A stretch of 64,000 nt of DNA from Escherichia phage inny: sequence record MN850601.1, one strand, 5' to 3'. Position numbers and translations under genes: made by a program. Positions 18,673-55,229 of the stretch are shown in pieces (positions within the stretch are counted from its first letter, which is position 1; each line of letters begins with the position of its first letter). The notes beneath the pieces were generated by a model, which did not search any database, was not told the DNA's origin, and saw only the letters and a program-made list of their open reading frames with translations.

Positions 18673-19650
18673 TTAAGCAACAGTCTGGTCTTCTTTTTCA
18701 GGGAAGATTAAACTTGCAATAACACCCAACCCAAGAGTACCTAACACAATATACATACTGATCGTCGGATCAATGTGTGCTGGCAGGAAACTCACTTTTG
18801 CGTGCAGAGTTTCTGCAAACGGATGATACATCAGTTTTACACCCACAAACACCAGGACTACGATAACTGCTTTCTCCAGATGAACCAAATACTTCAGTGC
18901 AACACTAAGAACAAAGAACAGAGCACGTAAACCTAAGATTGCACAAAGCATCGAAGAGAACACCAGCAGAGGTTCTTGTGTCACTGCAATTACTGCTGGA
19001 ACAGAGTCTACTGCAAAGATTACGTCTACCATTTCCATTACAAACACACAAACCAGAGCCGGAGTTGCTACACGAACACCATTTTTGATTGTGAAGAACT
19101 TCTCACCATCCATCTGATCAGATACAGGGAACAGCTTACGAACAATACGAGTAGCCCAGTGTTTAGAGTAATCAATTTCTGCATCATTATCCCCAGCGAA
19201 TACCATTTTAGCCGCACAGAAAAGGATGACAGCACCGAAGAAGATATTAACATACCAGCCCAAACTCAACAAGTAAGTACCTACTGCTACAAACACACCT
19301 CGGAAGACAATTGCACCTGCAATACCCCAAAGTAGAATCTTGTGCTGCAAGTGTGTGCTTTTAATACCAAAACTTGCGAAGACTGCCACAAATACTACTA
19401 AGTTATCTACAGAAAGAGATTTCTCCAACACATAACCACTCAAGAACAAGCTCGCAAAATCAGCACCGTGTTGGAAGTATACAAAACCATAGTAGGCTAA
19501 TGATACCCCAATCCAGAAAATTGACCAACCAATTGCAGATTTAAATGAGATCTCTTTGTTTTCTCTGTGTCCAAAGAAGTCAATACAAATCGACAAGACT
19601 AAAATACCCACTAAAACAACCACATCAATAATTGGGAAACCCAGTTGCAT
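18673..19650 (-). CDS. terC: TerC-family integral membrane protein
   Basis: 325 aa polytopic; LEKSLSVDNLVVFVAVF and AVDSVPAVIAV repeat motifs. Confidence 0.8.
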   Translation of the reverse strand: MQLGFPIIDVVVLVGILVLSICIDFFGHRENKEISFKSAIGWSIFWIGVSLAYYGFVYFQHGADFASLFLSGYVLEKSLSVDNLVVFVAVFASFGIKSTHLQHKILLWGIAGAIVFRGVFVAVGTYLLSLGWYVNIFFGAVILFCAAKMVFAGDNDAEIDYSKHWATRIVRKLFPVSDQMDGEKFFTIKNGVRVATPALVCVFVMEMVDVIFAVDSVPAVIAVTQEPLLVFSSMLCAILGLRALFFVLSVALKYLVHLEKAVIVVLVFVGVKLMYHPFAETLHAKVSFLPAHIDPTISMYIVLGTLGLGVIASLIFPEKEDQTVA

Positions 19651-19664
19651 TCTTTTCTCCTCTT

Positions 19665-19690
19665 TAATGCGGAGGACAATCCTCCGCTCT
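19665..19690 (-). promoter_or_regulatory. hairpin GCGGAGG-N5-CCTCCGC in 5' leader of terC-like gene
   Basis: 7-bp inverted repeat 15 nt upstream of the terC-like start. Confidence 0.3.
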
Positions 19691-19727
19691 ATGTCTTATA
19701 CTATAAACTGTTTTTAAAGAAAGTCAA

Positions 19728-42899: not shown

Positions 42900-43015
42900 T
42901 TAATGAGAATCATTTTCGTTTGTAAATGAGAATCATTATCATTTAACTATGTAAGTGATAATCATTCTCAGTAAGAGAATGAGAATCATTAGCAAATGAG
43001 AATTTTCTCATTTAG
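42900..43015. promoter_or_regulatory. cluster of five ATGAGAATCATT-type palindromic boxes (Fur-box-like)
   Basis: atgagaatcatt x2, gtgataatcattctca, aatgagaatcatt, aatgagaattttctcatt; ATGAGAATCATTATC matches 14/15 of the Fur consensus core. Confidence 0.45.
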
Positions 43016-43274: not shown

Positions 43275-43541
43275 TTATTTTTTGTTTTCTTGCCAGGATA
43301 GGACACCTAACCAAAAATACATGTCGCCCCGCGCCCCTGGCGGGATCTTGCTTTCCCCGCCGCCACTACAAGCCCATAGATAACCATTAGCGAACGGATC
43401 AAAATGATCTATTTCTTCCACCTTATGATCGCCCAGGTTGAGAACGGTTTCAACCTTTAAGCCCGTTGCGCTTGCTACCTGGTGCACCGTGCCGCCTTGC
43501 CAGCCTAATGAGTGCATGAGGTGTAGAGTAGTATTTGTCAT
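43275..43541 (-). CDS. hypothetical protein
   Basis: 88 aa; led on minus strand by hairpin + CATCAAAGAAAGGG RBS like the rightward cassettes. Confidence 0.5.
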   Translation of the reverse strand: MTNTTLHLMHSLGWQGGTVHQVASATGLKVETVLNLGDHKVEEIDHFDPFANGYLWACSGGGESKIPPGARGDMYFWLGVLSWQENKK

Positions 43542-43544
43542 GGT

Positions 43545-43640
43545 ATCGCCCTTTCTTTGATGTGCGCCCTGGTTGGCGCGGTAGAAAGATAATAGCCCTT
43601 TCCTTTATAGATAGCAAGCAAAAAAAAGAAATGAAAAAAA
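43545..43640 (-). promoter_or_regulatory. promoter + stem-loop cassette (minus-strand copy)
   Basis: On minus strand: TTGCTT-N17-TATTAT, then hairpin GCGCC-N6-GGCGC, then ACATCAAAGAAAGGG. Confidence 0.4.
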
Positions 43641-43664
43641 GATTAAAAAAGGGGTTGACGTTCC

Positions 43665-43693: not shown

Positions 43694-43810
43694 GAGGGGG
43701 GCGAGGCACAACGACAATAAACAAAAGGAGGGCGCAATGTAGGACGGGCAAAGGTGAGGATCTCCATAATCCACCGTCACAATAACATTACTTATAAAAG
43801 GTTGATAACG

Positions 43811-43906
43811 ATGATCAAGAAAGAAAACAGCTTGACGGTTGGAACGATTAACGCTATCATTCTTGCCGTTCCATTTTGGATTGTAGTTGCGGTTATTATT
43901 TTTTAA
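43811..43906 (+). CDS. tiny hydrophobic peptide (31 aa), speculative
   Basis: MIKKENSLTVGTINAIILAVPFWIVVAVIIF; weak SD. Confidence 0.25.
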   Translation: MIKKENSLTVGTINAIILAVPFWIVVAVIIF

Positions 43907-43914
43907 AAATATTC

Positions 43915-43970
43915 TTGACAACGTTTTTTAATCTGATAAGATGTATCACATAGGGCGGCAATAGTGCCGC
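43915..43970 (+). promoter_or_regulatory. early promoter + 5' stem-loop cassette
   Basis: TTGACA-N16-TAAGAT, then CATAGG + hairpin GCGGCA-ATAG-TGCCGC. Confidence 0.55.
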
Positions 43971-43994
43971 TCATAACAGAAGAGAGAAATAATC

Positions 43995-44267
43995 ATGGCA
44001 TCATATAGCGCATCAATGATCGTAATGGGCATCACTGGTAAACCTATGCGCGGTGGCGGATCTTTCGCTAACATCAATATTGATGGGCGTTTATCCCTGG
44101 ATGCAGCGATCACCGTGGCACGGGAAACATTTAAAAAAGAATGTAATTTCAATAAACAAGATTATCTCGGTTTCGCTATTGAAAAAACCGCGCGATTTGT
44201 GGATTATAAAAGCCCGAAAATGATCGACACTACACTAAAAGCGCAAGATGTAGCGTTTTTGCTTTAA
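43995..44267 (+). CDS. hypothetical protein
   Basis: 90 aa; follows cassette. Confidence 0.55.
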   Translation: MASYSASMIVMGITGKPMRGGGSFANINIDGRLSLDAAITVARETFKKECNFNKQDYLGFAIEKTARFVDYKSPKMIDTTLKAQDVAFLL

Positions 44268-44269
44268 GT

Positions 44270-44330
44270 CTTGACACTGAAAAATAATTTGGTAATATAT
44301 ACTCCATAAGGCGGGAAATGGTTTCCCGCC
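44270..44330 (+). promoter_or_regulatory. early promoter + 5' stem-loop cassette
   Basis: TTGACA-N16-TAATAT, hairpin GGCGGGAAA-TGG-TTTCCCGCC, then CATCAAAGAAAGGG. Confidence 0.55.
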
Positions 44331-44355
44331 AGGCCATCAAAGAAAGGGTAACACA

Positions 44356-44718
44356 ATGAGCAAGCAAATCAATACTATCATGTTAAACCTGGTATCTTTC
44401 CGCGACGACGTGAAAAATCTTCCACGTGATGCAGTGGATGCACGGATCGAAAGCTATCGCTCACAGATCGCAACGCTACCGCTAAAACGTGATCAACATG
44501 CCGCTAATATGATGCTTAATGCTATGCTTAAAAAGATGATTCAATGTGATCTTACCCTGGCTTATGAATATGCTGGCGATCTCTTTGTAACATATAGCAA
44601 GCCCGTACCAGGTATGAGCACAACGGAAGAATTGCATGCCTTAAATCTGCGACAAGATGCATGGGATAACATGCGCCGTGTTATGGTATGGGTAGAAAGC
44701 GGTAAAATTTACGAATAA
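44356..44718 (+). CDS. hypothetical protein
   Basis: 120 aa; follows cassette. Confidence 0.55.
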   Translation: MSKQINTIMLNLVSFRDDVKNLPRDAVDARIESYRSQIATLPLKRDQHAANMMLNAMLKKMIQCDLTLAYEYAGDLFVTYSKPVPGMSTTEELHALNLRQDAWDNMRRVMVWVESGKIYE

Positions 44719-44724
44719 AAACGG

Positions 44725-44778
44725 TTGACATTGCACTAAAACCTGATAAGCTATCTTAAAGCGGGAATAGTTCCCGCT
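44725..44778 (+). promoter_or_regulatory. early promoter + 5' stem-loop cassette
   Basis: TTGACA-N16-TAAGCT, hairpin GCGGGAA-TAG-TTCCCGC. Confidence 0.5.
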
Positions 44779-44796
44779 TACATAGGATAAAACTTT

Positions 44797-44943
44797 ATGA
44801 AACAATATGTAATGAGTATTCACACCAAAAACGGCGCTACTGTTACGACTCCGGCACGGTTTGCACTTGTAAACCGTTGCAAGAGACTAAAACGAGAGCT
44901 AAAAAACAACCGTGCAACGGGCTTTAAACGCTGGGGAGGATAA
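44797..44943 (+). CDS. small basic protein (about 48 aa)
   Basis: Below track cut-off; MKQYVMSIHTKNGATVTT...KRLKRELKNNRATGFKRWGG; coordinates approximate. Confidence 0.4.
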   Translation: MKQYVMSIHTKNGATVTTPARFALVNRCKRLKRELKNNRATGFKRWGG

Positions 44944-44945
44944 TC

Positions 44946-45206
44946 TTGTTTTTTCTAAAAGTTTTTGATAATGTGATCGCTTTTGAACATGCTACAACGT
45001 TCAACCTGGCGAGATACGCTATCAGGTTTAAAGATAATGTTTATCCCCGTGCTGGCGGCGGTTACACTATTTTTAATCATCGTAATGCGCAACTAACAGA
45101 TATAACGAATCCAGATCCTGGGGTGTATCGCATAGGCTGGCTACCGTCAAAAGACGCGGCAAGCATGTTTAAGGTATGTAAACTACTAACAGAAGAGGCG
45201 AACTAA
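44946..45206 (+). CDS. hypothetical protein (TTG start)
   Basis: 86 aa; GGAGGA 5 nt upstream of TTG, coupled to previous stop. Confidence 0.4.
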   Translation: MFFLKVFDNVIAFEHATTFNLARYAIRFKDNVYPRAGGGYTIFNHRNAQLTDITNPDPGVYRIGWLPSKDAASMFKVCKLLTEEAN

Positions 45207-45207
45207 C

Positions 45208-45762
45208 ATGGGGCGTGAATATGTGATCCAGTCCTGGGTAAAGCATGATGCTAATGATCCGCGCATAATACCAGATGACATGATCGATCACATGGTAGGA
45301 TATAGCGGGGAGCAGATAGGAAATCGAGCGGCAAAGAGCAACGGCAACACAAAGGCGCGATCCGTTCGCCCTGGTTGGCTGGCAAATGGTAACGCTGACA
45401 TTGCAAGCGCCGCAGATCCAAGCGATGACGCTAAAAATAATCCCTTATACAGCATTGATCCGGCTTTTAAGGTGTTAGAAGAGTATCCCGCTAAATTAGC
45501 CGCACTAGATAAGGCATACGAAGAAAAGCGCATGGCATGGACTGTATACAACACCGCTAAAATGGTGCTAGATGCAAAATTGATTAAAGCCCAGGAGAAG
45601 ATCAATAAACTTGTTGCAGTAGCGCAAGAGGAAGACCAGGACGACCAGGAGGAAGAGGAAGAAATCATGCCTACCCTGGAAGAGGAAGAGATCCAGCCAT
45701 ACATGCCGACGGAAGAGGAAAAAAGACAAGCCCTAAAAAATTATGAAAATTGTATTGTGTAA
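45208..45762 (+). CDS. hypothetical protein with strongly acidic C-terminal region
   Basis: 184 aa; QEEDQDDQEEEEEIMPTLEEEEIQPYMPTEEE. Confidence 0.55.
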   Translation: MGREYVIQSWVKHDANDPRIIPDDMIDHMVGYSGEQIGNRAAKSNGNTKARSVRPGWLANGNADIASAADPSDDAKNNPLYSIDPAFKVLEEYPAKLAALDKAYEEKRMAWTVYNTAKMVLDAKLIKAQEKINKLVAVAQEEDQDDQEEEEEIMPTLEEEEIQPYMPTEEEKRQALKNYENCIV

Positions 45763-45765
45763 GGC

Positions 45766-45871
45766 TTGACATATGCAAACAAGCCCCGTAATATGTACCA
45801 CATAAAGCGGGGCAACGCCCCATAAGGTGAAATAAAAAATCACTTGACACCTGAAATCAGTAAGCTATAAT
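45766..45871 (+). promoter_or_regulatory. tandem early promoters, first with stem-loop
   Basis: TTGACA-N17-TAATAT + hairpin GGGGC-AAC-GCCCC; then TTGACA-N16-TATAAT. Confidence 0.5.
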
Positions 45872-45908
45872 GCTTATATAGATTGAAACATTACTAAGGA
45901 ATAAAAGC

Positions 45909-46088
45909 ATGGCTATTATTGCAAATACTGAGATCGTAGGTTTAGATTCTATCATCCTGGCATATGAGGAAGCTATAGAAATGTATGTGGTTTCCTATGG
46001 TGATTATATCCGTGAATATAAATCTATTGATCTAGCTTTTGAATGTTATATTCGCCAGGTCAATAAAGCCTATGATGATTATCGTTAA
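45909..46088 (+). CDS. small hypothetical protein (59 aa)
   Basis: Below track cut-off; AAGGA upstream; MAIIANTEIVGLDSIILAYEEAIEMYV... Confidence 0.4.
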   Translation: MAIIANTEIVGLDSIILAYEEAIEMYVVSYGDYIREYKSIDLAFECYIRQVNKAYDDYR

Positions 46089-46107
46089 AAGTTTTAGTCT
46101 TGTGCTA

Positions 46108-46136
46108 TTGACAACGAACGATAGTACAAGCATAAT
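46108..46136 (+). promoter_or_regulatory. sigma70-like promoter (no stem-loop)
   Basis: TTGACA-N17-CATAAT. Confidence 0.4.
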
Positions 46137-46183
46137 AACTTTTATCGGGAATACTCCTAACTAATCAAAAGAGATTAAAGACT

Positions 46184-46549
46184 ATGGCTAAAAATATCAA
46201 TGTTTCTGCTTATGCTACCCTGGCTAACACTGCTAAAATTGAACTATCCAGCATTGAAGCGGTACATATTAGCGCCCGTCGCTGGTTTCAAAAGTCTTAT
46301 GGTAATACTTATTTCTCTTTGATGGTTGACGTTGAGATCGGCGGTAAACTGATTGAAGTCGTTAACGTTCCGTTTCAATATGGTTATGGTGATCATTTTG
46401 ATACCGTTGCCCTAGAAGAGTTTAGCAAGGTTATCAACCTGGAAGGTAAAGACTTTTCAAATTATGCTTACCTTTCCCGTTTTTGCCGTGACAATGGGAT
46501 CGCTGTATACAGTCATGCAAGCGATGTTAAACGTAAAAAAGATCTATAA
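46184..46549 (+). CDS. hypothetical protein
   Basis: 121 aa ORF. Confidence 0.55.
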   Translation: MAKNINVSAYATLANTAKIELSSIEAVHISARRWFQKSYGNTYFSLMVDVEIGGKLIEVVNVPFQYGYGDHFDTVALEEFSKVINLEGKDFSNYAYLSRFCRDNGIAVYSHASDVKRKKDL

Positions 46550-46555
46550 AAAGCA

Positions 46556-46612
46556 TTGACAACAGAAAGAAAAAGAGTAAACTGTATCACATCAGGACGG
46601 GGAACGGTTTCC
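46556..46612 (+). promoter_or_regulatory. early promoter + 5' stem-loop cassette
   Basis: TTGACA-N16-TAAACT, hairpin GGGGAA-CGGT-TTCCCC, then CTAACAAAGAGAG. Confidence 0.5.
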
Positions 46613-46638
46613 CCCTCCTAACAAAGAGAGAAATAAAA

Positions 46639-46821
46639 ATGGCTAAATGCACTATCTGTAAGAAAGAAATAGTATTAGTTCCAAGCGCCCGTGAACGTGC
46701 CGCTAAGTTCGGTGGCAAACCGTCAGACTATACGAAAATGTTTACTACCCATGCAGCTTGTCAGGTAGCAAAACGTTCACAAGAAAGCGTAGAATTAATG
46801 CGTAAACTTTCCAAAAAATAA
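46639..46821 (+). CDS. hypothetical protein
   Basis: 60 aa; follows cassette. Confidence 0.5.
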   Translation: MAKCTICKKEIVLVPSARERAAKFGGKPSDYTKMFTTHAACQVAKRSQESVELMRKLSKK

Positions 46822-46823
46822 TA

Positions 46824-46883
46824 TTGACAAAGTATTTTATTACTATATAATGGTTTACATCGAGAGCGGGAATAGTTCCCGCC
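46824..46883 (+). promoter_or_regulatory. early promoter + 5' stem-loop cassette
   Basis: TTGACA-N16-TATAAT, hairpin GCGGGAA-TAG-TTCCCGC. Confidence 0.55.
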
Positions 46884-46906
46884 TCACTGAAAAAGAGATT
46901 AACATC

Positions 46907-47146
46907 ATGGCTAAATCAAAAATGTTCTTAGGTCACAAAAATAAAACTCATTGGAATGTAAGCCTTTGGATCAACAACGATGAAGGTTTTTATAATCTTG
47001 CGCGTGAATTTATCGCAGCTAACACCAATAAGAATGACGCAGCGCGGGATATGATGTTATTCCTTGAAAGTATGGATCAAGATAAAACGCCAGACGGTTA
47101 CAAGTTCAGTAAAACTGCAATCCGTGCCGCTATGGTAGGAATGTAA
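46907..47146 (+). CDS. hypothetical protein
   Basis: Track ORF 46850..47146 trimmed to ATG after cassette (MAKSKMFLGH...). Confidence 0.5.
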   Translation: MAKSKMFLGHKNKTHWNVSLWINNDEGFYNLAREFIAANTNKNDAARDMMLFLESMDQDKTPDGYKFSKTAIRAAMVGM

Positions 47147-47155
47147 TAAAATAGC

Positions 47156-47216
47156 TTGACACTGTTTTTTATTCTGGTATAGTTTATCACATAGGGCGGG
47201 AAATGGTTTCCCGCCA
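47156..47216 (+). promoter_or_regulatory. early promoter + 5' stem-loop cassette
   Basis: TTGACA-N17-TATAGT, CATAGG + hairpin GGCGGGAAA-TGG-TTTCCCGCC, AAATCAAAGAAAGG. Confidence 0.55.
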
Positions 47217-47237
47217 AATCAAAGAAAGGTTATTATT

Positions 47238-47465
47238 ATGGCTATCGTTATTGTTCGCGTATCCGGTACGGTTGGAAGCTCCCAAGTAGTAGCAGTTATC
47301 ACCGAGAAGAAAGGGGATGATCTTCACTCTTCCTTGAATAGCTGGGCGGTCGCTAACTTCGGGCAATGGTCGAGCGTTGAGTACATCGAATCCTACCAGG
47401 TGCCAACGATTAGCCTAACAGATCTGAATGTTGATCGCTTGTTGTGCCTGGATGGATTAAACTAA
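47238..47465 (+). CDS. hypothetical protein
   Basis: 75 aa; follows cassette. Confidence 0.5.
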   Translation: MAIVIVRVSGTVGSSQVVAVITEKKGDDLHSSLNSWAVANFGQWSSVEYIESYQVPTISLTDLNVDRLLCLDGLN

Positions 47466-47473
47466 AAATAATC

Positions 47474-47530
47474 TTGACAAGATAACTAAAATCAGTAAAA
47501 TGTAATGCATAGGGCGGCAATAGTGCCGCT
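47474..47530 (+). promoter_or_regulatory. early promoter + 5' stem-loop cassette
   Basis: TTGACA-N16-TAAAAT, CATAGG + hairpin GCGGCA-ATAG-TGCCGC. Confidence 0.55.
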
Positions 47531-47552
47531 CATAGTAAGAGAGATTATCAAA

Positions 47553-47768
47553 ATGGCTAATATCCGCACACTGTTAAAAAATGCAAGTCAAGTTTTATTT
47601 TCAGATGACGAGTATTTCAACAAAGACATTACAGGCGTGAAAAATTTAAAAGACGTGAAGGATGTTATCGGTATCCGTGGATCTTTACGTAAAGGTGACA
47701 TATACGGTAACAAGGTGCAATATAAACTGTCAAAAGATTATGATTTTACTTTGACAATTATTTCATAA
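47553..47768 (+). CDS. hypothetical protein
   Basis: Track ORF 47505..47768 trimmed to ATG after cassette (MANIRTLL...). Confidence 0.5.
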   Translation: MANIRTLLKNASQVLFSDDEYFNKDITGVKNLKDVKDVIGIRGSLRKGDIYGNKVQYKLSKDYDFTLTIIS

Positions 47769-47774
47769 AACCGC

Positions 47775-47836
47775 TTGCAATACTGCAAAAATAAAGTAAA
47801 CTGTATTCATCAAGGCGGTGGAATAGCCCACCGCCT
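47775..47836 (+). promoter_or_regulatory. early promoter + 5' stem-loop cassette
   Basis: TTGCAA-N17-TAAACT, hairpin GGCGGTGG-AATAGC-CCACCGCC. Confidence 0.5.
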
Positions 47837-47859
47837 AACAAAGAGAAGAGGAAAACATC

Positions 47860-48030
47860 ATGATCACTTTCGCTACCCGTGAAGCCGCTCGCAACGTTGC
47901 ACGTAAAGTTAACGCCGCCAACCTGGGCGCTACGCTTAAAGCCCCGGTAAAAGATGAATCAGGTAAATGGATCTTCCCTGGTTTGCGTCACGCTGATAAG
48001 CTGGGAACGTTAACGTTAAAAAATAAATAA
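47860..48030 (+). CDS. small hypothetical protein (about 56 aa)
   Basis: Below track cut-off; MITFATREAARNVARKVNAANLGATLKAPVKDESGKW...; coordinates approximate. Confidence 0.4.
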   Translation: MITFATREAARNVARKVNAANLGATLKAPVKDESGKWIFPGLRHADKLGTLTLKNK

Positions 48031-48037
48031 TATCCGC

Positions 48038-48098
48038 TTGACAGTAGCATGATTTATAAGTAAAGTAACAACAACGGCGGGAAATGGTTTCCCGCCAT
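48038..48098 (+). promoter_or_regulatory. early promoter + 5' stem-loop cassette
   Basis: TTGACA-N17-TAAAGT, hairpin GGCGGGAAA-TGG-TTTCCCGCC. Confidence 0.55.
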
Positions 48099-48116
48099 CA
48101 ATAAAGAGATAAGATT

Positions 48117-48476
48117 ATGAAATCAGCAAAAGCAATTAAAACTTATATTGTGTCGGCTATTTCTTTTGAAGGTACTACAACCGAAAAAGAAAAGATCACC
48201 GAACTGATGCGCCGTTTTAACTCTGAATACTGGTATCCCGATAATCAAAAACGTTACAATTATAACGTGATCAAGGCGATAGCCTCATGGTTACAAGGTT
48301 TACCGTCAGAAATCAATATTGCTTTTGATTATAACGAGATCGATCACTTATTAATTGAATGGAAGTACATAAAAGAAACAAGCAAAGAAACAACCGTTAC
48401 CCGTGAGCGGGAAAATTATTGGTTATATATTGCAAGCATGATCGTAATCCTGGCAAAACAGCATAACGTGGCGTAA
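48117..48476 (+). CDS. hypothetical protein
   Basis: 119 aa; follows cassette. Confidence 0.55.
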   Translation: MKSAKAIKTYIVSAISFEGTTTEKEKITELMRRFNSEYWYPDNQKRYNYNVIKAIASWLQGLPSEINIAFDYNEIDHLLIEWKYIKETSKETTVTRERENYWLYIASMIVILAKQHNVA

Positions 48477-48490
48477 TTAAGAGGAAAAAC

Positions 48491-48628
48491 ATGAACGCAT
48501 CACAGCAGATCGAAAAATTCAACCGCAGCAAGGCGCGTAAAGATTGGAACGAAGAGATCACCAAAAAAGGCGACAAGCGGAACAAAACAAAGAGAGATCG
48601 CAGCACAAAAAGATACTGGAACGAATAA
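48491..48628 (+). CDS. small basic protein (about 45 aa)
   Basis: Below track cut-off; AAGAGGAAAAAC upstream; MNASQQIEKFNRSKARKDWNEEITKKGDKRNKTKRDR... Confidence 0.35.
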   Translation: MNASQQIEKFNRSKARKDWNEEITKKGDKRNKTKRDRSTKRYWNE

Positions 48629-48633
48629 CAAAA

Positions 48634-48656
48634 AAGGGCGCTTATTGCGCCCTTTT
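48634..48656 (+). terminator. rho-independent terminator
   Basis: AAGGGCGC-TTAT-TGCGCCCTTTT. Confidence 0.6.
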
Positions 48657-48746
48657 AGCTTATATAGAGGCTTGTTACCCATAGGCAATGGTAACGCCAG
48701 GATAAGCCTATAAACCACGTTAGACAGCTTTACAGGAGCTTTAAAA

Positions 48747-48929
48747 ATGAAATTAGAAGAAATAAGCAAGGCACTAGCCCAGGGGCAAAGGTTAAACGCC
48801 CGTTATCGTGATCAATATGGCTTCATAACCAGCGGCGTGATCCTGGGGATTGAAGGCAATAAGATTTTTATTGACACGTTGAAAAACGTTGTATATAGTG
48901 ACAATATAATCTCAATAAAACATATATGA
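48747..48929 (+). CDS. hypothetical protein
   Basis: 60 aa; AGGAG SD. Confidence 0.45.
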   Translation: MKLEEISKALAQGQRLNARYRDQYGFITSGVILGIEGNKIFIDTLKNVVYSDNIISIKHI

Positions 48930-48937
48930 GGCAAGAA

Positions 48938-49339
48938 ATGAAAAAATTATTGATCGCTGGTTTAATCTCTTTTGGCATGGTTGGAACATCTAGCGCGGCG
49001 ATATCCTCCACAGTAGCAGAATTAAGCGCCGTTGATGCAATGGAAAACGTGATGCTTATTAATAATGCGATCCCCGATGAAATCATGGAGGATTCACACA
49101 TGATCGCTTATGGTGCTGTTACACAACTAACGGCAAAAATAGATAAATCTATTGTTAATGGCTTAAATGAAGATGTACCATGTGAAATTATTACCAGTGT
49201 GCTCACTACTCAAAATTTTACGCCGTGGTTAAAAAGTATTCAAAAAGTACACAGTACAGCCGCAGATCGTAGCAATGAAAAACTAGTGTCAGCACTTGCA
49301 ACGTATACCCTGGCAAAATGCACCGAGATAAAAGATTGA
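48938..49339 (+). CDS. secreted hypothetical protein
   Basis: Track ORF trimmed to ATG (MKKLLIAGLISFGMVGTSSAA...), signal-peptide-like. Confidence 0.55.
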   Translation: MKKLLIAGLISFGMVGTSSAAISSTVAELSAVDAMENVMLINNAIPDEIMEDSHMIAYGAVTQLTAKIDKSIVNGLNEDVPCEIITSVLTTQNFTPWLKSIQKVHSTAADRSNEKLVSALATYTLAKCTEIKD

Positions 49340-49364
49340 CAACATAGAAAGCACGTTATAAGAT
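49336..49364 (+). promoter_or_regulatory. sigma70-like promoter (no stem-loop)
   Basis: TTGACA-N17-TAAGAT. Confidence 0.4.
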
Positions 49365-49386
49365 ACACACAACAAAGGAGAACTAC

Positions 49387-49689
49387 ATGAACGGCATAGC
49401 TAAAACGTTTTTTCTTTTTTCTGGTGTAAATGATCCATCAATAAAAGTCGATAGTGTAAAAGAAAACAATACTATCACCGCTAAATTGTTTCAAGATGAA
49501 ACAAATAACGTGCTAATCATTAATCTTAAAGAAATAACGAAAGGTTATTGTACTATTGCTTACCATGCAATCTATCATGCTGGTACTAGTGAGGAAGTGC
49601 AAACAAGCAACAACGAAAGCGCGGCGCTACCTGGTGATCTGGTGCTGGGCGTTATCAGTTTAATTGTCAATGATTTTTTTAAGGAGTAA
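49387..49689 (+). CDS. hypothetical protein
   Basis: 100 aa; AAAGGAG SD. Confidence 0.55.
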   Translation: MNGIAKTFFLFSGVNDPSIKVDSVKENNTITAKLFQDETNNVLIINLKEITKGYCTIAYHAIYHAGTSEEVQTSNNESAALPGDLVLGVISLIVNDFFKE

Positions 49690-49693
49690 AACC

Positions 49694-49789
49694 ATGCCCT
49701 ATTTACATTTATTTTTCGGGATCTTATTGTCAGGATCTTTTTTCTTCTGTATACTTGTTTCTATTGTAAACCACGTTTTAAGACATTAA
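49694..49789 (+). CDS. tiny hydrophobic peptide (31 aa), speculative
   Basis: AAGGAG SD; MPYLHLFFGILLSGSFFFCILVSIVNHVLRH. Confidence 0.25.
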   Translation: MPYLHLFFGILLSGSFFFCILVSIVNHVLRH

Positions 49790-49798
49790 GGAAACAAC

Positions 49799-49918
49799 AT
49801 GAAAATTATTCCCGTACAGTATAGCGTAATAAATCCAGCATATGAGGAAGGAAGGAAAACAAGCATGGTTTTATGTTATATTGCTACTATAGCCATGTTG
49901 TTATATATTGTGTTTTAA
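49799..49918 (+). CDS. tiny membrane peptide (39 aa), speculative
   Basis: MKIIPVQYSVINPAYEEGRKTSMVLCYIATIAMLLYIVF. Confidence 0.25.
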   Translation: MKIIPVQYSVINPAYEEGRKTSMVLCYIATIAMLLYIVF

Positions 49919-49947
49919 TAGGTTTTATAGTTGTACGCTTTAAAGGC

Positions 49948-49975
49948 TTGACAATTTTTTGTTATGCTTTAAAAT
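49948..49975 (+). promoter_or_regulatory. sigma70-like promoter (no stem-loop)
   Basis: TTGACA-N16-TAAAAT. Confidence 0.4.
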
Positions 49976-50018
49976 ATATCTTGAAAACGGCAAAGGCCGC
50001 AAACAAAAGGGTAAAATT

Positions 50019-50342
50019 ATGAAATCTGTGATAGGTGTTTATTTGGATAACTCTGATTTTTTCTATCATCGCGCGCGTTTACTTGATGCTATTGAAATGA
50101 TAGAATCAGGCTTTAAAGAGTATCGCCTTGCACATGATGACCTGGAAGCATTACAGGGCAATAGTGTTTTTACATTGCAAGCGAAAGCACTATGCAAAAG
50201 CCGGATCGAGATTGCGAGCAAAAAGATAGAACGCGGCATGTCCTGGTTGCGCACCGCAGAAATCAACATGGGGCAATGGTACGGCGAAAACTTAGAAAAT
50301 AAACATACTTTTGTCAATGTAGAAAATATTGAAGATTATTGA
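50019..50342 (+). CDS. hypothetical protein
   Basis: Track ORF 49959..50342 trimmed to ATG (MKSVIGVY...). Confidence 0.5.
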   Translation: MKSVIGVYLDNSDFFYHRARLLDAIEMIESGFKEYRLAHDDLEALQGNSVFTLQAKALCKSRIEIASKKIERGMSWLRTAEINMGQWYGENLENKHTFVNVENIEDY

Positions 50343-50343
50343 T

Positions 50344-50406
50344 TGACAGCACACCGAACGGGTAGTATATTGTATCTCATAGAGCGGGGAAATGGTTTCC
50401 CCGCCT
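50344..50406 (+). promoter_or_regulatory. early promoter + 5' stem-loop cassette
   Basis: TTGACA-N17-TATATT, CATAGAG + hairpin GCGGGGAAA-TGG-TTTCCCCGC. Confidence 0.55.
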
Positions 50407-50424
50407 TAAAAGAAGAGATAAGCT

Positions 50425-50709
50425 ATGAAGATCACAAAAGCACTTTCCAACTATGCAGCACGTCGCGGCTTATGTTTAACCGTTGAAAACTTAGGGAAAG
50501 AAGATTTTTTGTGCTTTTGGGAGCTTGAGAATGATAATGAGTGGATCTTCTCTTATTCTATCTGCGAAGATCAAAACGGTTGTTTATTAACCTGGCGCGG
50601 TAATATCTATCTACCGGAAGAAATCAAAGAAGAATTACCAGGCACGATCATGACTGAGAAACAGCTTAAGGAAGTGATTAATTTTGTAGGGCAAAACATT
50701 AAAAAATAA
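50425..50709 (+). CDS. hypothetical protein
   Basis: 94 aa; follows cassette. Confidence 0.55.
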   Translation: MKITKALSNYAARRGLCLTVENLGKEDFLCFWELENDNEWIFSYSICEDQNGCLLTWRGNIYLPEEIKEELPGTIMTEKQLKEVINFVGQNIKK

Positions 50710-50710
50710 T

Positions 50711-50771
50711 TTGACACTAGGCAAACAACGTAGTAAAGTTTATCACATAGGGCGGCAATAGTGCCGCTCAT
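50711..50771 (+). promoter_or_regulatory. early promoter + 5' stem-loop cassette
   Basis: TTGACA-N17-TAAAGT, CATAGG + hairpin GCGGCA-ATAG-TGCCGC (near-identical to 43915 and 47474 copies). Confidence 0.55.
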
Positions 50772-50790
50772 AACAGAAGAGAAACAAATC

Positions 50791-50961
50791 ATGATCCCGA
50801 CTATGTTTTATGTATCGCGCAAAGGTCACAATATTTTTTGGTCTGAAGATTTAAATGAAGCCATGACGTTTGCCCGTGATCGTGTAGCTATCGGTGGCGT
50901 TAACATCACCGTAACCGATGAAAACGGCATTGAATACTATAACGGCGACGATGAAGAGTAA
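50791..50961 (+). CDS. hypothetical protein
   Basis: Track ORF 50761..50961 trimmed to ATG after cassette (MIPTMFYVSRKGHN...). Confidence 0.45.
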   Translation: MIPTMFYVSRKGHNIFWSEDLNEAMTFARDRVAIGGVNITVTDENGIEYYNGDDEE

Positions 50962-50965
50962 TTAA

Positions 50966-50992
50966 TGAGGCGGGGGAGTATTCCCCGCCGTC
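50966..50992 (+). promoter_or_regulatory. 5' stem-loop without obvious own promoter
   Basis: GGCGGGG-N-CCCCGCC hairpin then GTCAATAAAGAGG before ATG of 51009. Confidence 0.4.
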
Positions 50993-51008
50993 AATAAAGA
51001 GGTAAATC

Positions 51009-51278
51009 ATGAAAATATCTTTGGACGTTGCAATCAAGGCCATCGAATCCGGTTACACCCTGGTAAAAGATGATAAGGCTAAAACCGTGCACCACGTTAA
51101 CAAGGAAACAGGCGAAAGCATGATCACATATAAAGCCGCCTACTTTCTCCAATCAGTAGCAGATCCGCGCGTACAACGCCAGGTTACGGCGGCTATTGCT
51201 AAAAAATTATGTGCTTTACAGGGTACAAGTTTTAACGAGATCGCCCCGTGTTTTGACTGGTCGAGCTTGAAAAAATAG
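51009..51278 (+). CDS. hypothetical protein
   Basis: 89 aa ORF. Confidence 0.55.
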   Translation: MKISLDVAIKAIESGYTLVKDDKAKTVHHVNKETGESMITYKAAYFLQSVADPRVQRQVTAAIAKKLCALQGTSFNEIAPCFDWSSLKK

Positions 51279-51280
51279 TT

Positions 51281-51340
51281 TGACAATACGCGGTTATCTG
51301 GTAAAGTGTACGACATAGGGCGGGGCAATAAGGCAACGCC
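51281..51340 (+). promoter_or_regulatory. early promoter + 5' stem-loop cassette
   Basis: TTGACA-N16-TAAAGT, CATAGG + GC-rich hairpin (GGGCGGGGCAATAAGGCAACGCCC). Confidence 0.5.
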
Positions 51341-51360
51341 CATTAATGAGGGTAGAATCA

Positions 51361-51465
51361 TGTTAGAGAAAATTTTCACGGTTGTAGTAGTGGGCCTGGC
51401 GTTATCGGTTGGAGTGGTTGCAACTATGGCTAACATGATCCTATCTTCCCACGGTATTGGATAAG
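51361..51465 (+). CDS. tiny membrane peptide (about 34 aa), speculative
   Basis: MLEKIFTVVVVGLALSVGVVATMANMILSSHGIG; coordinates approximate. Confidence 0.3.
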
Positions 51466-51474
51466 GTGAATCAA

Positions 51475-51690
51475 ATGATCACGAATAAGACAGGTAAAAC
51501 GGAATTCTTGCGCGGCTTGCAAATAGGTAAACCTGAGATCTGGCATTGCACTAAATCCGCGCATAATGAAATGAAAGATTTTACCGCTACTTTACAACGT
51601 GTTAAAATATCTATCACGCAGAAAAAAGCCTTGTTAGTAGTAGAAAACGAGATACCGCAAACCATTATTATTGTCGAGCGTACAGCATGA
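51475..51690 (+). CDS. hypothetical protein
   Basis: Track ORF 51457..51690 trimmed to first ATG (MITNKTGK...). Confidence 0.45.
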   Translation: MITNKTGKTEFLRGLQIGKPEIWHCTKSAHNEMKDFTATLQRVKISITQKKALLVVENEIPQTIIIVERTA

Positions 51691-52073
51691 AAACTGAAAT
51701 CATTATTGAAATCATCAACGGTTATAAAGAAGCCTTTATTTTTGCTGAATCAGCCAGGGATCATGAAGGTAATTTTATAGATGACATGACTGATCATGAG
51801 TTTTCAGATCAAGCCCATCAGCGGATCATACATGACGTGGCGGCGTTTTGTGATGCCAATGATGCCGCTATCTCTGAGGCAATGAGCGACGGCGCTACAG
51901 CAAACCAGATCGGGAATGACTTACATTTCACCCGTAACGGTCACGGTGTAGGCTTTTGGGATCGCCCTGAAATATACACTACTAACACCGCCAACCGCCT
52001 AACAAATGCAGCTAAATTAATGCCATCGGTGCATGCTTACATTGGTGAAGATAATTTGATTTATATTGAATAA
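51687..52073 (+). CDS. hypothetical protein
   Basis: 128 aa; start overlaps previous stop. Confidence 0.55.
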   Translation: MKTEIIIEIINGYKEAFIFAESARDHEGNFIDDMTDHEFSDQAHQRIIHDVAAFCDANDAAISEAMSDGATANQIGNDLHFTRNGHGVGFWDRPEIYTTNTANRLTNAAKLMPSVHAYIGEDNLIYIE

Positions 52074-52079
52074 AAAGTA

Positions 52080-52137
52080 TTGACACCGATCCCCAATATG
52101 GTACTATTTACCACGTAGGCGGGAAGTGGTTTCCCGC
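52080..52137 (+). promoter_or_regulatory. early promoter + 5' stem-loop cassette
   Basis: TTGACA-N16-TACTAT, hairpin GGCGGGAAG-TGG-TTTCCCGCC. Confidence 0.5.
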
Positions 52138-52161
52138 CAGGTAATCAAAAAGGTAAATACT

Positions 52162-52551
52162 ATGCGCAACCTGGTTTCTGTTTCTAACGTTGAAAAATTT
52201 CAATCTTTACAGGGTATCGTTAACAACGTAGCGCCTTTTTTAGTCAACGGCTTGATTGCAAAGATGAAAAATAAACATCATGCGGCATGGTCTGCTTACT
52301 GCTTTGATAATGATGAAAAAGCGGCTGAAATGATGTTAAATATGCTGTTAGACAGTGTAGAATCATCTTTACCGGAAAACATCGCAGAAGAGATCACCTA
52401 TCGTTATAATATGGCGATCACTTACCAGGAGGTTGCGCAATTCAACATGATGGATGATGACGAACAACAGGATCAGGAAATGTTTTGGGAGTATGCAGAT
52501 CGTCAATCGGCTTTTGATGAAAAATTAGCGATGTATTATAACGAATATTAA
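52162..52551 (+). CDS. hypothetical acidic protein
   Basis: Track ORF 52126..52551 trimmed to ATG (MRNLVSVS...); acidic MMDDDEQQDQEMFWEY. Confidence 0.55.
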   Translation: MRNLVSVSNVEKFQSLQGIVNNVAPFLVNGLIAKMKNKHHAAWSAYCFDNDEKAAEMMLNMLLDSVESSLPENIAEEITYRYNMAITYQEVAQFNMMDDDEQQDQEMFWEYADRQSAFDEKLAMYYNEY

Positions 52552-52566
52552 TACACGGTAAAAGAA

Positions 52567-52592
52567 AGGGGCGCACTAAGCGCCCTTTTTTG
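52567..52592 (+). terminator. rho-independent terminator
   Basis: GGGGCGC-ACTAA-GCGCCCTTTTTTG. Confidence 0.6.
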
Positions 52593-52936
52593 TATTCTTT
52601 TTTCACGATGGAAGTAACACGTAAAGAATAGGCGTAAAGGTGGCGTAAAACAGCCTAAAACCGATTATAACCGCTTAAACAAGGTAATAATGATTAATCA
52701 CCTTGCCAGGATGAAAAAGCTGTTATAAAGCTATTTAGAGCGTTTAAAGCACATAGGAAATAATTTGCTTTTTATCTTGCCTTTTATCCTGCTTTTGATT
52801 ATTATTATGGAACGGGCGGCACCTGGGAGCAGGGGAAGATAATCACCGGACGATCTTATTATATATTGATAGCTTCCACCTATCAAATAACAAAACATCA
52901 AAGAAATAAACTATCAAATCTTTACAATTCTACCTA

Positions 52937-52996
52937 TTGACACCGGATCGCCCTTATACTAAGATGTATCACGTAAGGCGGGAAGTGGTTTCCCGC
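52937..52996 (+). promoter_or_regulatory. early promoter + 5' stem-loop cassette
   Basis: TTGACA-N17-TAAGAT, hairpin GGCGGGAAG-TGG-TTTCCCGC. Confidence 0.55.
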
Positions 52997-53015
52997 TCAA
53001 TATAGGAATCATATC

Positions 53016-53246
53016 ATGATCGAACAAATTAAACGCGCTGAAGCTATTAACGGCAATGTGATCTATTCTGTCAGCAATAACGAAAAAGGCGTACCCTATG
53101 CAGCGGTGATAGTACAGCCTGACGGTGATTATTGGTTTACTGTATACGGATCTTATTCTTTTGGGCGTCCAGTACATGATAAAATTTTGAAAGTAGCTAA
53201 TCCCACTGGGAAGAATATCACAGTAGAAAAATTTTTTGAAAAATAA
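53016..53246 (+). CDS. hypothetical protein
   Basis: 76 aa; follows cassette. Confidence 0.5.
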   Translation: MIEQIKRAEAINGNVIYSVSNNEKGVPYAAVIVQPDGDYWFTVYGSYSFGRPVHDKILKVANPTGKNITVEKFFEK

Positions 53247-53719: not shown

Positions 53720-53748
53720 CAGGGCGCACAAAGCGCCCTTTCTTTTTA
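53720..53748 (+). terminator. rho-independent terminator
   Basis: GGGCGC-ACAAA-GCGCCCTTTCTTTTT. Confidence 0.55.
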
Positions 53749-53951
53749 CCTAAAGAAAGATGATAGCTTTTACCTATCAAAAACGTTCACCGAAAAAAGT
53801 GAATAGATCGCGGTATCGAGCTAATCAAGGAGCAGATGAACAACCATACCATGAAGATCATAAGGCGCTTACAACGTGTTTTAGACCGCTTATTTTTAAT
53901 TTCTTCATGCAACTATCTGGCAAAAACAGCCTTTTTCTTGTCTTTCCCCTT

Positions 53952-54025
53952 AAATGATAATCATTCTTATCTATAGCTGATTATTTATGCAATAAATTGC
54001 ATAATGCAATAATGATAATCATTCC
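53952..54025. promoter_or_regulatory. two Fur-box-like palindromes
   Basis: AAATGATAATCATTCTTATC and ATAATGATAATCATTC against consensus GATAATGATAATCATTATC. Confidence 0.45.
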
Positions 54026-54319
54026 TAACTTAAGACCATCTAACCTATAAAATAATAAGTTATCTAACTAAATTAAAACTAATTATCTCACTTTTATTTA
54101 TAACTTACTGTTACTATCTCATTGATAACATTGTATTAAACAACAATAACTAATATAAATCATTACTAAGCTAAATATAATCTATCTAACCCTTAAAACT
54201 ACAATTATAATCTATCGAATTGTTGCACAAAGTAACTATTAAATTGTTAGTAACATTACTAAATAATTCACATCCTATCTATTTATGATCTAATCTTTAC
54301 CTTCCTATCTATTACTTAG

Positions 54320-54371
54320 ATAATCATTTCATACAGTAACCATTTCATGTAGTAATCATTCCATACAATAA
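54320..54371. repeat. three tandem ~17-bp iteron-like repeats
   Basis: taatcatttcatacagtaac / catttcatgtagtaat / cattccatacaataac. Confidence 0.6.
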
Positions 54372-54503
54372 CTATAACAAGAAATATAATTCGCAAGCGT
54401 ATCATTAGCAGCCTATGCCGGACACATAGGCGGCTAATAATAACGCAACTACACACCCCACATAATAACCATCACCGATAGTCATTATTTGTGCTTATGT
54501 AGC

Positions 54504-54563
54504 TTGCAACAACTGCAAGCGCAACAATATACAATTGTATATTGTATCCCTTACATTGTTGCG
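54504..54563. repeat. nested inverted repeats around a perfect 20-bp palindrome
   Basis: TTGCA-ACAAC-TGCAA; GCAACAAT ... ATTGTTGC flanking CAATATACAATTGTATATTG. Confidence 0.6.
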
Positions 54564-54892
54564 GTGCGTTATTATTAGCTAATGTTTAGAACATTGGCTA
54601 TAATATAAGCTAAATAATAAGCTATACAATAATAAACATCGTGAATAATGATGCTGATGATCATAATGCGCCACCTTCCAGGGGGCGCTATGTGAACACA
54701 AAGAAATCTTTCTTGTCAAGAAAAATATTAACACTATTGCGCAAAATTATTTATATATGAATAGATGGTTTTTCATACTATTGTTATTATTTATCGGGCA
54801 TAGTTATAGCCTATTTGTTGAGCCTACTCTTTTAAAAGCGCAATAAAGTAGAATTATCTTGATTTTTAGTCGGTTTTATAGTACAGAAAGTA

Positions 54893-54915
54893 TGCAAATG
54901 ATAATCATTATCAAC
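54893..54915. promoter_or_regulatory. near-consensus Fur-box-like palindrome
   Basis: AAATGATAATCATTATC matches 16/17 of Fur consensus TAATGATAATCATTATC. Confidence 0.5.
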
Positions 54916-55078
54916 TATCTTCCACGGGTGGCACTATTTCACGCCAGATCATTTCATTTGGCAAGGTGTATATAGATGTTTAGACTTGCCAAGCCATTGA
55001 TTTACTTAGAATTTATCTGTTTTGTTGTGAGTAGTACCTTTCTTGCTCAGAAAATAATCAAAAGTCTTATAAGTCATT

Positions 55079-55110
55079 GAATGATAATGCAAATGATAAT
55101 TATTCTCATT
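55079..55110. promoter_or_regulatory. tandem Fur-box-like half-sites
   Basis: GAATGATAATGCAAATGATAATTATTCTCATT. Confidence 0.4.
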
Positions 55111-55229
55111 GATATTTGAGGGGGACGGTCGGCAGAAATCGGGGGGGCGCTGAAAATCGCGTTAAGCACCTCTCGCAAGCGAGCAGTGTTTTGCGGCAAG
55201 TTATTGATATTATTGACTTTACGCTTATG

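Follow-up and report, generated by a model that had tools for sequence, protein, structure and literature searches.

The 64,000-nucleotide stretch of Escherichia phage inny analyzed here (the window) carries an array of small genes, many of which are led by a repeated cassette consisting, in order, of a promoter, a hairpin rich in G+C, an A-rich linker that contains a weak purine ribosome-binding site (RBS), and an ATG start codon. The hairpin is under structural selection, and insertions, deletions, and replacements of genes between close relatives are bounded by these cassettes. On balance, we read the cassette as a portable module, serving both the expression of a single small accessory gene and recombination, that is similar to the promoter-early-stem-loop (PeSL) cassettes of T4-type phages, with its hairpin residing in the 5' leader. 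The phage is a Justusliebigvirus (phi92-like, Stephanstirmvirinae) coliphage with relatives of ~147 kb, and the 9-kb array region, which matches 285 phage records, is 94-98% identical to Justusliebigvirus coliphages (97.6% for Nernie).

A strict promoter pattern (TTGACA-N16/17-TAnnnT, exact matches) was detected 31 times in the window, compared with 3.2 matches expected from shuffles, and 18 of these matches lie on the + strand within the array, in agreement with the promoter consensus given in the original prediction for this region, which had been made from the DNA letters and a list of their open reading frames. A strong G+C hairpin begins 6-14 nucleotides after the -10 element in 12 of the 18 exact array promoters; hairpins of this kind were found in 1.1% of shuffled downstream segments, in 2.4% of random 42-mers from the window, and behind none of the 13 other sites in the window that resemble promoters. 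Another four copies, weaker or variant (at 45766, at 47775 with a TTGCAA -35 element, at 51280 with an interrupted stem, and at 49948 with a 4-bp stem) bring the array promoters with a hairpin to 15 or 16. The spacing is regular, with 38-41 nucleotides from the -35 element to the hairpin start in 14 of 16 copies, and the hairpin always resides downstream of the -10 element, mostly beginning 9-12 nucleotides after it (range 6-14). A conserved lead, CA(T/C)(A/G)(T/A)AGG, precedes the hairpin, so that the CATAGG-type lead and A-rich purine RBS of the original prediction are both borne out. Fourteen intergenic spacers are 78-95 nucleotides long, and in these the upstream stop codon directly meets an A-tract and the -35 element.

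The claim of at least 15 near-identical cassettes stands for the count and fails for the near-identity, as only 7 of 120 pairs share an exact stretch of at least 20 nucleotides (longest, 42 nucleotides) and the cassettes form a family of several hairpin subtypes. Nor is each gene led by a cassette, as had been proposed, since 13 of the 29 array genes have no hairpin cassette and are either tightly packed after the preceding gene or carry their own, stronger Shine-Dalgarno sequence. Three promoters of array genes (45844, 46108, and 49336) have no hairpin or only a degenerate one, a promoter-like match at 48871 (inside gene 48747) is without a hairpin, and the array contains one hairpin with an RBS and no promoter (50969-51008). 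Shine-Dalgarno complementarity is weaker in hairpin-led genes than in other array genes (-4.4 vs -6.0 kcal/mol; p=0.05). The cassettes, promoters, and associated genes of the array are as follows, in window coordinates.

43915-43994, + strand: cassette with promoter TTGACA-16-TAAGAT, hairpin 43953-43972 (GGGCGGCA-AUAG-UGCCGCUC), and RBS; gene 43995-44267.
44271-44355, + strand: cassette with hairpin 44310-44330 (GGCGGGAAA-UGG-UUUCCCGCC); gene 44356-44718.
44725-44796, + strand: cassette with hairpin 44759-44779, 6 nucleotides after the -10 element, and CATAGG after the hairpin; gene 44797-44943.
45766-45843, + strand: orphan cassette, a promoter and 5-bp hairpin (45809-45821) that lead into a second promoter rather than a gene.
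45844-45908, + strand: perfect-consensus promoter with no hairpin; gene 45909-46088.
46108-46183, + strand: promoter (CATAAT -10 element) with a degenerate hairpin remnant; gene 46184-46549.
46556-46638, + strand: cassette with hairpin 46594-46619, Asteriusvirus-like from the hairpin on; left junction of an acquired module.
46639-46821, + strand: 60-amino-acid gene, 94-96% identical in jumbo Asteriusvirus phages.
46824-46906, + strand: cassette with hairpin 46862-46885, right junction of the acquired module; promoter half Asteriusvirus-like, and phi92-like from about ACATCGAG (upstream of the hairpin) through the hairpin; gene 46907-47146 (DUF7249).
47156-47237, + strand: cassette with hairpin 47195-47215; gene 47238-47465.
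47474-47552, + strand: cassette with hairpin 47512-47531; gene 47553-47768.
47775-47859, + strand: cassette with TTGCAA -35 element and hairpin 47813-47836 (AGGCGGUGG-AAUAGC-CCACCGCCU); gene 47860-48030.
48038-48116, + strand: cassette with hairpin 48076-48096; genes 48117-48476 and 48491-48628 (T7 gp1.1 family).
49336-49386, + strand: promoter without a hairpin, 16-nucleotide leader; gene 49387-49689.
49948-50018, + strand: weak-hairpin cassette, 4-bp hairpin 49988-49999; gene 50019-50342.
50343-50424, + strand: cassette with hairpin 50384-50404; gene 50425-50709.
50711-50790, + strand: cassette with hairpin 50750-50769; gene 50791-50961 (56 amino acids).
50969-51008, + strand: promoterless hairpin (50969-50989) with RBS; gene 51009-51278; left junction of the module that phAPEC8 lacks.
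51280-51359, + strand: cassette with interrupted hairpin 51318-51341; gene 51360-51464; site of insertions in ESCO32 and Nernie.
52080-52161, + strand: cassette with hairpin 52118-52138 and a G.U closing pair; gene 52162-52551.
52937-53015, + strand: cassette with hairpin 52977-52997; gene 53016-53246.

Covariation in the hairpin was measured on cassettes from the window, six Stephanstirmvirinae relatives, and one jumbo phage, using an apex-anchored, ungapped alignment. A single covariance model for all hairpins was abandoned, as the odd-loop and even-loop registers were incompatible in a MAFFT alignment. In the odd-loop class, 95.8% of cells are paired, compared with 79% in shuffles and ~60% in slid controls, and double-sided changes occur at 7 of 9 pairs; in the even-loop class, 93% of cells are paired, compared with 75% in shuffles. 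Pairing falls to background directly outside the stem. Because these sets were chosen with a hairpin finder, a second set was collected by orthology of the downstream coding sequence alone, and at these sites the hairpin is kept in every ortholog. Five different hairpin cores are present among phages at the site before the 56-amino-acid gene at 50791, with the flanks conserved. In phage PD114, two hairpins (orthologs of 47512-47531 and 50750-50769) are the exact reverse complement of those of relatives, for example GGGCGGCACTATTGCCGCCC vs GGGCGGCAATAGTGCCGCCC, implying hairpin or cruciform events at the DNA level. The varied cores and these flips indicate that structure, not sequence, is maintained and that the loop sequence is non-essential. 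The commonest apex is AAU(G/A)GU, with loops varying among CAC, UGU, UUG, ACAAG, and AAC, and several stems require G.U pairs on the sense strand (e.g., GGGCGGC...GCCGCUC and AAG/UUU).

Given a transcription start 7-8 nucleotides after the -10 element, in CA(C)AUAGG, the predicted transcripts would carry 2-5 single-stranded nucleotides ahead of the hairpin, which begins at about +3 to +5 relative to the nominal start site, and the stem-loop would thus be 5'-proximal, as had been proposed. Predicted leader folding energies range from -13 to -19 kcal/mol, with z scores of -1.9 to -6 (below -3 in 12 of 14), and in these predicted folds the hairpin is the minimum-free-energy element and the region from the Shine-Dalgarno sequence to the AUG is mostly unpaired. 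The 8 nucleotides following the stems are A/C-rich, not U-rich, and a terminator scan called none of the + strand cassette hairpins terminator-like, calling 52563 (+) and 48632-48656 (-). Without a U-tract, the cassette hairpin is not an intrinsic terminator. A search of the window against Rfam returned no match at the gathering threshold and none at E<=1, with two sub-threshold, chance-level hits in the array.

Comparison with related genomes for cassette-mediated gene shuffling, which had been put forward as a check, provided evidence of gene gain, loss, and exchange at the cassettes. In BLAST comparisons of the array with nine relatives, 23 of 27 breakpoint clusters fell inside the cassettes, whose share of the array is 21.5% (binomial p=3e-12), and two modules (46639 and 50969) were resolved. 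The first contains the 60-amino-acid gene at 46639-46821, which is absent from six relatives aligning across the site and replaced in ESCO32. At this site the flanking alignments overlap by ~70 nucleotides, the signature of direct-repeat cassettes, and multiple alignment shows that the "empty site" of phi92 is a single chimeric cassette. The cassettes around the same gene in SP27, a jumbo phage (Asteriusvirus), match the window's left cassette from the hairpin on and the promoter half of its right cassette, with the crossovers of the module falling in the shared ACATC(G/A)AG-hairpin segment. This gene is present at 94-96% identity in ~30 jumbo phages, has 72% relatives in K64-1-like phages, and is found in only a handful of Justusliebigvirus, a distribution that indicates transfer from a jumbo phage. 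The second module, consisting of the hairpin at 50969, the RBS, an 89-amino-acid gene, and the promoter at 51280, is missing in phAPEC8, whose two hairpins stand side by side. In addition, the 59-amino-acid gene at 45909, common to rV5-like phages, is deleted from ATG to ATG in phi92, and one deletion in A110a ends within the G-run of a hairpin arm.

In the reading that we favor, the stop codon of the upstream gene leads through an A-tract into a near-consensus sigma-70 promoter read by unmodified host polymerase, and the transcript would start in CA(C)AUAGG, 2-5 nucleotides before a stable 6-10 bp G+C hairpin. About 20 nucleotides of A/C-rich unstructured leader come next, then a weak purine-rich Shine-Dalgarno sequence and AUG (often AUGGCUA). 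The 5'-proximal hairpin would make the 5' end less accessible to RppH and RNase E, and would keep the ribosome site from pairing with upstream or downstream sequence, such that any open reading frame placed behind it could be expressed. As the modules are repeated and share 20-70 nucleotides of sequence centered on the hairpin, they also supply homology for recombination, and the unit running from hairpin through RBS, gene, and stop codon to the next promoter is gained, lost, or exchanged at the cassettes, as with the PeSLs of T4-type phages, and can cross phage families. Secondary structure at the 5' end stabilizes E. coli mRNA, and RppH and RNase E need single-stranded 5' ends (PMC3997798). 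The predicted leader geometry is compatible with such a 5'-structure block, and the hairpin probably stabilizes or insulates the mRNA. It may also mark the early mRNAs of the phage as resistant to a 5'-end-dependent decay of host mRNA that the phage accelerates.

Several points weigh against this reading. Selection removes recombinants with broken genes, which means that intergenic breakpoints are partly expected and the enrichment in cassettes is inflated; the individual junctions therefore carry more weight than the enrichment. Interior mismatches in unique hairpins comprise 13 G.U and 6 A.C, a weak strand signal from counts that are not independent and a difference that is not significant, and because flipped hairpins are tolerated, selection at the RNA level is not separated from selection for a palindrome in the DNA. 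The 2-5 unpaired 5' nucleotides may still admit RppH or RNase E, and RNase E also enters transcripts directly (PMC3997798). Finally, a hairpin and RBS without a promoter at 50969, the tandem hairpins of phAPEC8, and many Vequintavirus sites demonstrate that a strictly 5'-terminal role cannot explain everything.

The hairpin could instead act at the DNA level only, as a palindrome or cruciform recombination hotspot and selfish mobility signal with no role in the mRNA. Consistent with this, the junctions of gained and lost modules lie in or beside the hairpin, with the A110a deletion ending in its arm, the exact PD114 flips imply palindrome events, and PeSL crossovers map to the stem-loop. The fixed spacing to the -10 element, the need of several stems for sense-strand G.U pairs, and the occurrence of unrelated hairpins at this leader position after other promoters nevertheless favor a constraint at the level of the transcript, and we regard a purely DNA-level account as unlikely, although a DNA-level hotspot and an RNA role may coexist. 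The hairpin might also be the recognition site of a phage or host RNA-binding factor, such as a nuclease or translational regulator, that switches the early set together. Joint control of ~16 genes would be economical, and both the apex bias AAU(G/A)GU, which is seen in both hairpin classes and in Asteriusvirus cassettes, and the conserved CAUAGG lead before the hairpin would fit such a site; yet the loops are variable and those of Vequintavirus unrelated, the PD114 flips alter the loop, five cores occupy one site, common descent and gene conversion can account for the apex bias, and no candidate protein was identified, making this explanation quite unlikely. We consider it distinctly unlikely that the hairpin is a transcription attenuator or terminator damping upstream read-through so that its own promoter dominates, as in T4-type PeSLs. 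Stem-loops of PeSLs reduce lacZ expression as strongly as rrnB T1 (PMC2839356), the GenBank record ASO2A labels the element a terminator, and promoterless hairpins between genes do exist, but an attenuator placed behind its own promoter would damp that promoter's transcript too, the stem is followed by A/C-rich sequence, and the hairpins were not called on the + strand by a scan that did call the array's two real terminators.

The GenBank record of phAPEC8 labels the hairpin a "putative promoter determined with PHIRE", right after a "host dependent promoter", and TCACATAGGG superficially resembles the start region of T7 TCACTATAGGG, raising the idea that the conserved 20-mer is a phage-specific promoter, perhaps for a phage RNA polymerase. 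The motif is always found at a fixed distance after a sigma-70 promoter, and it covaries as a stem rather than being conserved. In addition, no T7-like or N4-like RNA polymerase was found among the open reading frames of at least 550 amino acids in a 95%-identical complete genome. None of the 10 such reading frames (largest, 1182 amino acids) was identified as an RNA polymerase. Three unassigned ones were scanned with Pfam, two of them having virion domains and the 958-amino-acid one matching no family, and seven were assigned by eye to DNA polymerase, helicase, ribonucleotide reductase, primase-helicase, and structural proteins. The phage promoter label is thus very unlikely to be correct. 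A palindromic operator for a dimeric DNA-binding repressor was rejected, as the arms covary across unrelated sequences with no constant half-site. As for a lambda-type nut site (boxA plus a boxB hairpin serving read-through of terminators), boxA-like GCUCAUAACA is seen only in GCGGCA-type cassettes, where by eye it overlaps the 3' arm and was judged coincidental, and the terminator scan found no terminators between cassette genes.

Among known systems, the closest counterparts of the cassette are the PeSLs of the T4-type phages RB49/phi1, PST, and nt-1 (Arbiol et al. 2010, PMC2839356; Comeau et al. 2014, PMC4122927). Both take in the stop codon of the preceding gene within an AT-rich tract, combine an early promoter of sigma-70 consensus type with a G/C-rich stem-loop, and end 3' in a Shine-Dalgarno sequence and start codon; in both, the cassettes are concentrated among small ORFan genes, and the indels or replacements that distinguish close relatives begin and end at cassettes, the crossovers mapping to the stem-loop or right next to it. 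In the RB49/phi1 PeSLs, the stem-loop lies mostly between or over the -35 and -10 elements, or upstream of them, and works as a terminator (PMC2839356), whereas here the hairpin is uniformly 9-12 nucleotides downstream of the -10 element, inside the transcribed leader, with no U-tract and, judged from sequence, no sign of terminator function. The original prediction of a PeSL-like architecture is therefore upheld for the behavior of the cassettes and not for their geometry. The lineages also differ, being Stephanstirmvirinae, Asteriusvirus, and Vequintavirinae here and not T4-like.

The leader of T7 gene 10 starts with a hairpin. Stabilizing stem-loops at the 5' terminus are also reported for the ompA and papA mRNAs (Emory, Bouvet, Bricker, and Belasco, as cited in PMC3997798). 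The predicted leaders here resemble these in that a stable hairpin lies a few nucleotides from the predicted 5' end and an accessible ribosome site comes after it, on transcripts needing high expression. They differ in that the hairpin is a repeated, exchangeable module before ~16 unrelated genes and in that the predicted overhang of 2-5 nucleotides is at the upper limit for protection. As for the array as a whole, the SPO1 host-takeover module and the T5 pre-early terminal region are comparable early small-gene regions. Sigma-70 promoter lists or arrays have been reported in the "early" small-gene regions of rV5-like phages (rV5, PMC3606486; Certrevirus CB7, PMC7344957). Many strong host-type promoters with UP-like A-tracts, short hypothetical genes, and the lack of a phage RNA polymerase are common features of these regions and the present array, whereas the descriptions of the former include neither a leader hairpin nor cassette-mediated exchange. 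Integron gene cassettes, with their attC hairpin sites, offer an analogy, as each is an array of small unrelated genes with an imperfect palindrome per unit at which units come and go. Here, however, there is no integrase, each unit has a promoter, and the hairpins are much shorter than attC; unlike in integrons, exchange between cassettes is probably homologous recombination.

Outside of the array, a complete genome 95% identical to the window contains the canonical cassette only at the equivalent of 19727(-), with several other promoters carrying unrelated hairpins at the same leader position. Asteriusvirus arrays have the same design (TTGACA-16-TATAAT, TTTACATCAA, GGGGAGAA-UAG-UUCUCCCC, CUAACAAAGAGAGA, and AUGGCUA), and Vequintavirus phages a looser version with weaker promoters, unrelated loops, and many promoterless hairpin and RBS sites. 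In a pattern scan of IMG/VR, the hits came from these three phage groups again, along with isolated single hits that were indistinguishable from chance. One uncultivated viral contig (3300045988_074297, 97 kb) has the same cassettes, including the rare module of the 60-amino-acid gene, a content that makes it a very close relative of the phage studied here. No cassette match was found among 5,426 E. coli genomes, and the cassette is thus not a host or prophage repeat. Tentatively, the cassette may be a common promoter-hairpin-RBS socket, a "currency" shared by the otherwise unrelated phi92-like, PBECO4-like jumbo, and rV5-like phages. Were that the case, the socket would guarantee expression of any small open reading frame, would supply homology (and perhaps a palindrome hotspot) for moving genes, and would move early accessory and counter-defense genes between families during co-infection.

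Searches of openly accessible (non-subscription) literature on phi92, phAPEC8, and PBECO4-type phages turned up sigma-70 promoter lists only and no description of the composite element. The clearest gain is the resolved exchange between families, which provides sequence-resolved gene flow between 147-kb and 350-kb phage families via cassette homology, together with the uniform placement of the hairpin in the leader, which extends the PeSL idea beyond T4-like phages to at least 2-3 other large-coliphage families. The database labels of the hairpin as a phage promoter or terminator are also corrected. The array is the expected place of fast-evolving early or counter-defense genes, which the cassettes help to find and delimit, and each cassette, with its promoter, 5' hairpin, and RBS, is a compact natural expression part of use in phage engineering.

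Two terminator-like elements split the array into three blocks, and cassettes were also seen on the minus strand just ahead of the array and in isolation outside of it.

43811-53246, + strand: array of 29 small genes of 31-184 amino acids in three transcription blocks, from the open reading frame list and choice of starts.
48632-48656, called on the - strand: terminator-like hairpin with a T-run on both sides, end of block 1.
52563-52591, + strand: intrinsic terminator from the terminator scan, end of block 2.
43542-43617, - strand: cassette with TTGCTA-17-TATTAT (-35 element at 43617), hairpin 43564-43579 (GCGCC-AACCAG-GGCGC), and ATCAAAGAAAGGG; gene 43275-43541, ATG at 43541.
19651-19727, - strand: isolated cassette outside the array with TTGACT-18-TAGTAT, CATAGA, hairpin 19669-19687, and Shine-Dalgarno sequence; ATG at 19650.

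The number of + strand genes with plausible starts agrees with the more than 25 tiny genes originally proposed, and the minus-strand copy driving a divergent gene that had been placed at 43545-43640 is likewise present; its hairpin is unlike those of the array, and its ribosome site, ATCAAAGAAAGGG, is the same. Annotations of relatives list the region as consecutive "hypothetical protein" entries within a ~30-kb block of small + strand genes. The description of the genes as small, mutually unrelated, and unassignable also held, as 25 of the 29 products match PHROG families, each a different one and all except one of unknown function, with 4 products matching none, and significant Pfam matches were obtained for just 2 of the 29 genes, to DUF7249 (46907) and the T7 gp1.1 family (48491). 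Gene 53322, which directly follows the array, matches the T4 gp30.8 family. The sigma-70 promoters, the position near the genome end, and the two homologs of small early-region genes of T7 and T4 make it a reasonable guess that the array consists of early, host-takeover, or anti-defense genes. The 343-bp direct terminal repeats of phi92 map to 54821-55164 (97% identical), which places the physical genome end within the window and the end of the array ~1.6 kb short of the physical right end, towards which the array is transcribed.

Six consecutive genes within 45909-47555 start with ATGGCTA (Met-Ala-Lys/Ile/Asn), as do the cassette-led genes of Asteriusvirus; together with the one ATG-to-ATG indel relative to phi92, these starts suggest that the conserved module reaches into the first codons. 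At the head of the array, a start-stop mini-open reading frame (ATG TAG, 43738-43743) directly follows a strong AAGGAGG and sits downstream of a promoter-like site at 43655. Following the 48632-48656 hairpin, a structured leader at 48660-48746 (GTTACC-CATAGGCAAT-GGTAAC inside AGGCTT...AAGCCT) contains the cassette motifs CATAGG and AATGGT without a consensus promoter, and may be a decayed cassette. Between the block 2 terminator and the cassette at 52937, ~340 nucleotides (52592-52936) have no credible open reading frame; relatives have insertions at the 52937 cassette or annotated small minus-strand open reading frames in this region.

Beyond the array, the interval 53740-55164 holds 1.1 kb of AT-rich non-coding DNA and, after it, the sequence that matches the phi92 terminal repeat. 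A Fur-box-like repeat, AATGATAATCATTnTC, clusters at 42902-42993 and 53953-55110 (13 matches with at most 2 mismatches vs 0.6 expected), in two long non-coding regions on either side of the array, the second of which overlaps the terminal-repeat region; these repeats may be bound by host Fur or by a phage protein, or may be iterons. Across the whole window, GGCC is strongly avoided (10 vs 64-79 expected), as are CTGCAG (1 vs 8-11 expected) and CCGG, with no avoidance of GATC or CCWGG, and a cytosine methyltransferase is annotated in one relative. Finally, the relative A110a has ~1-kb insertions in its DNA polymerase (1182 vs 859 amino acids) and helicase (924 vs 578 amino acids) that are absent from the window, at sites corresponding to ~3457-3470 and ~29560-29593, and by their sequence these insertions look like inteins.

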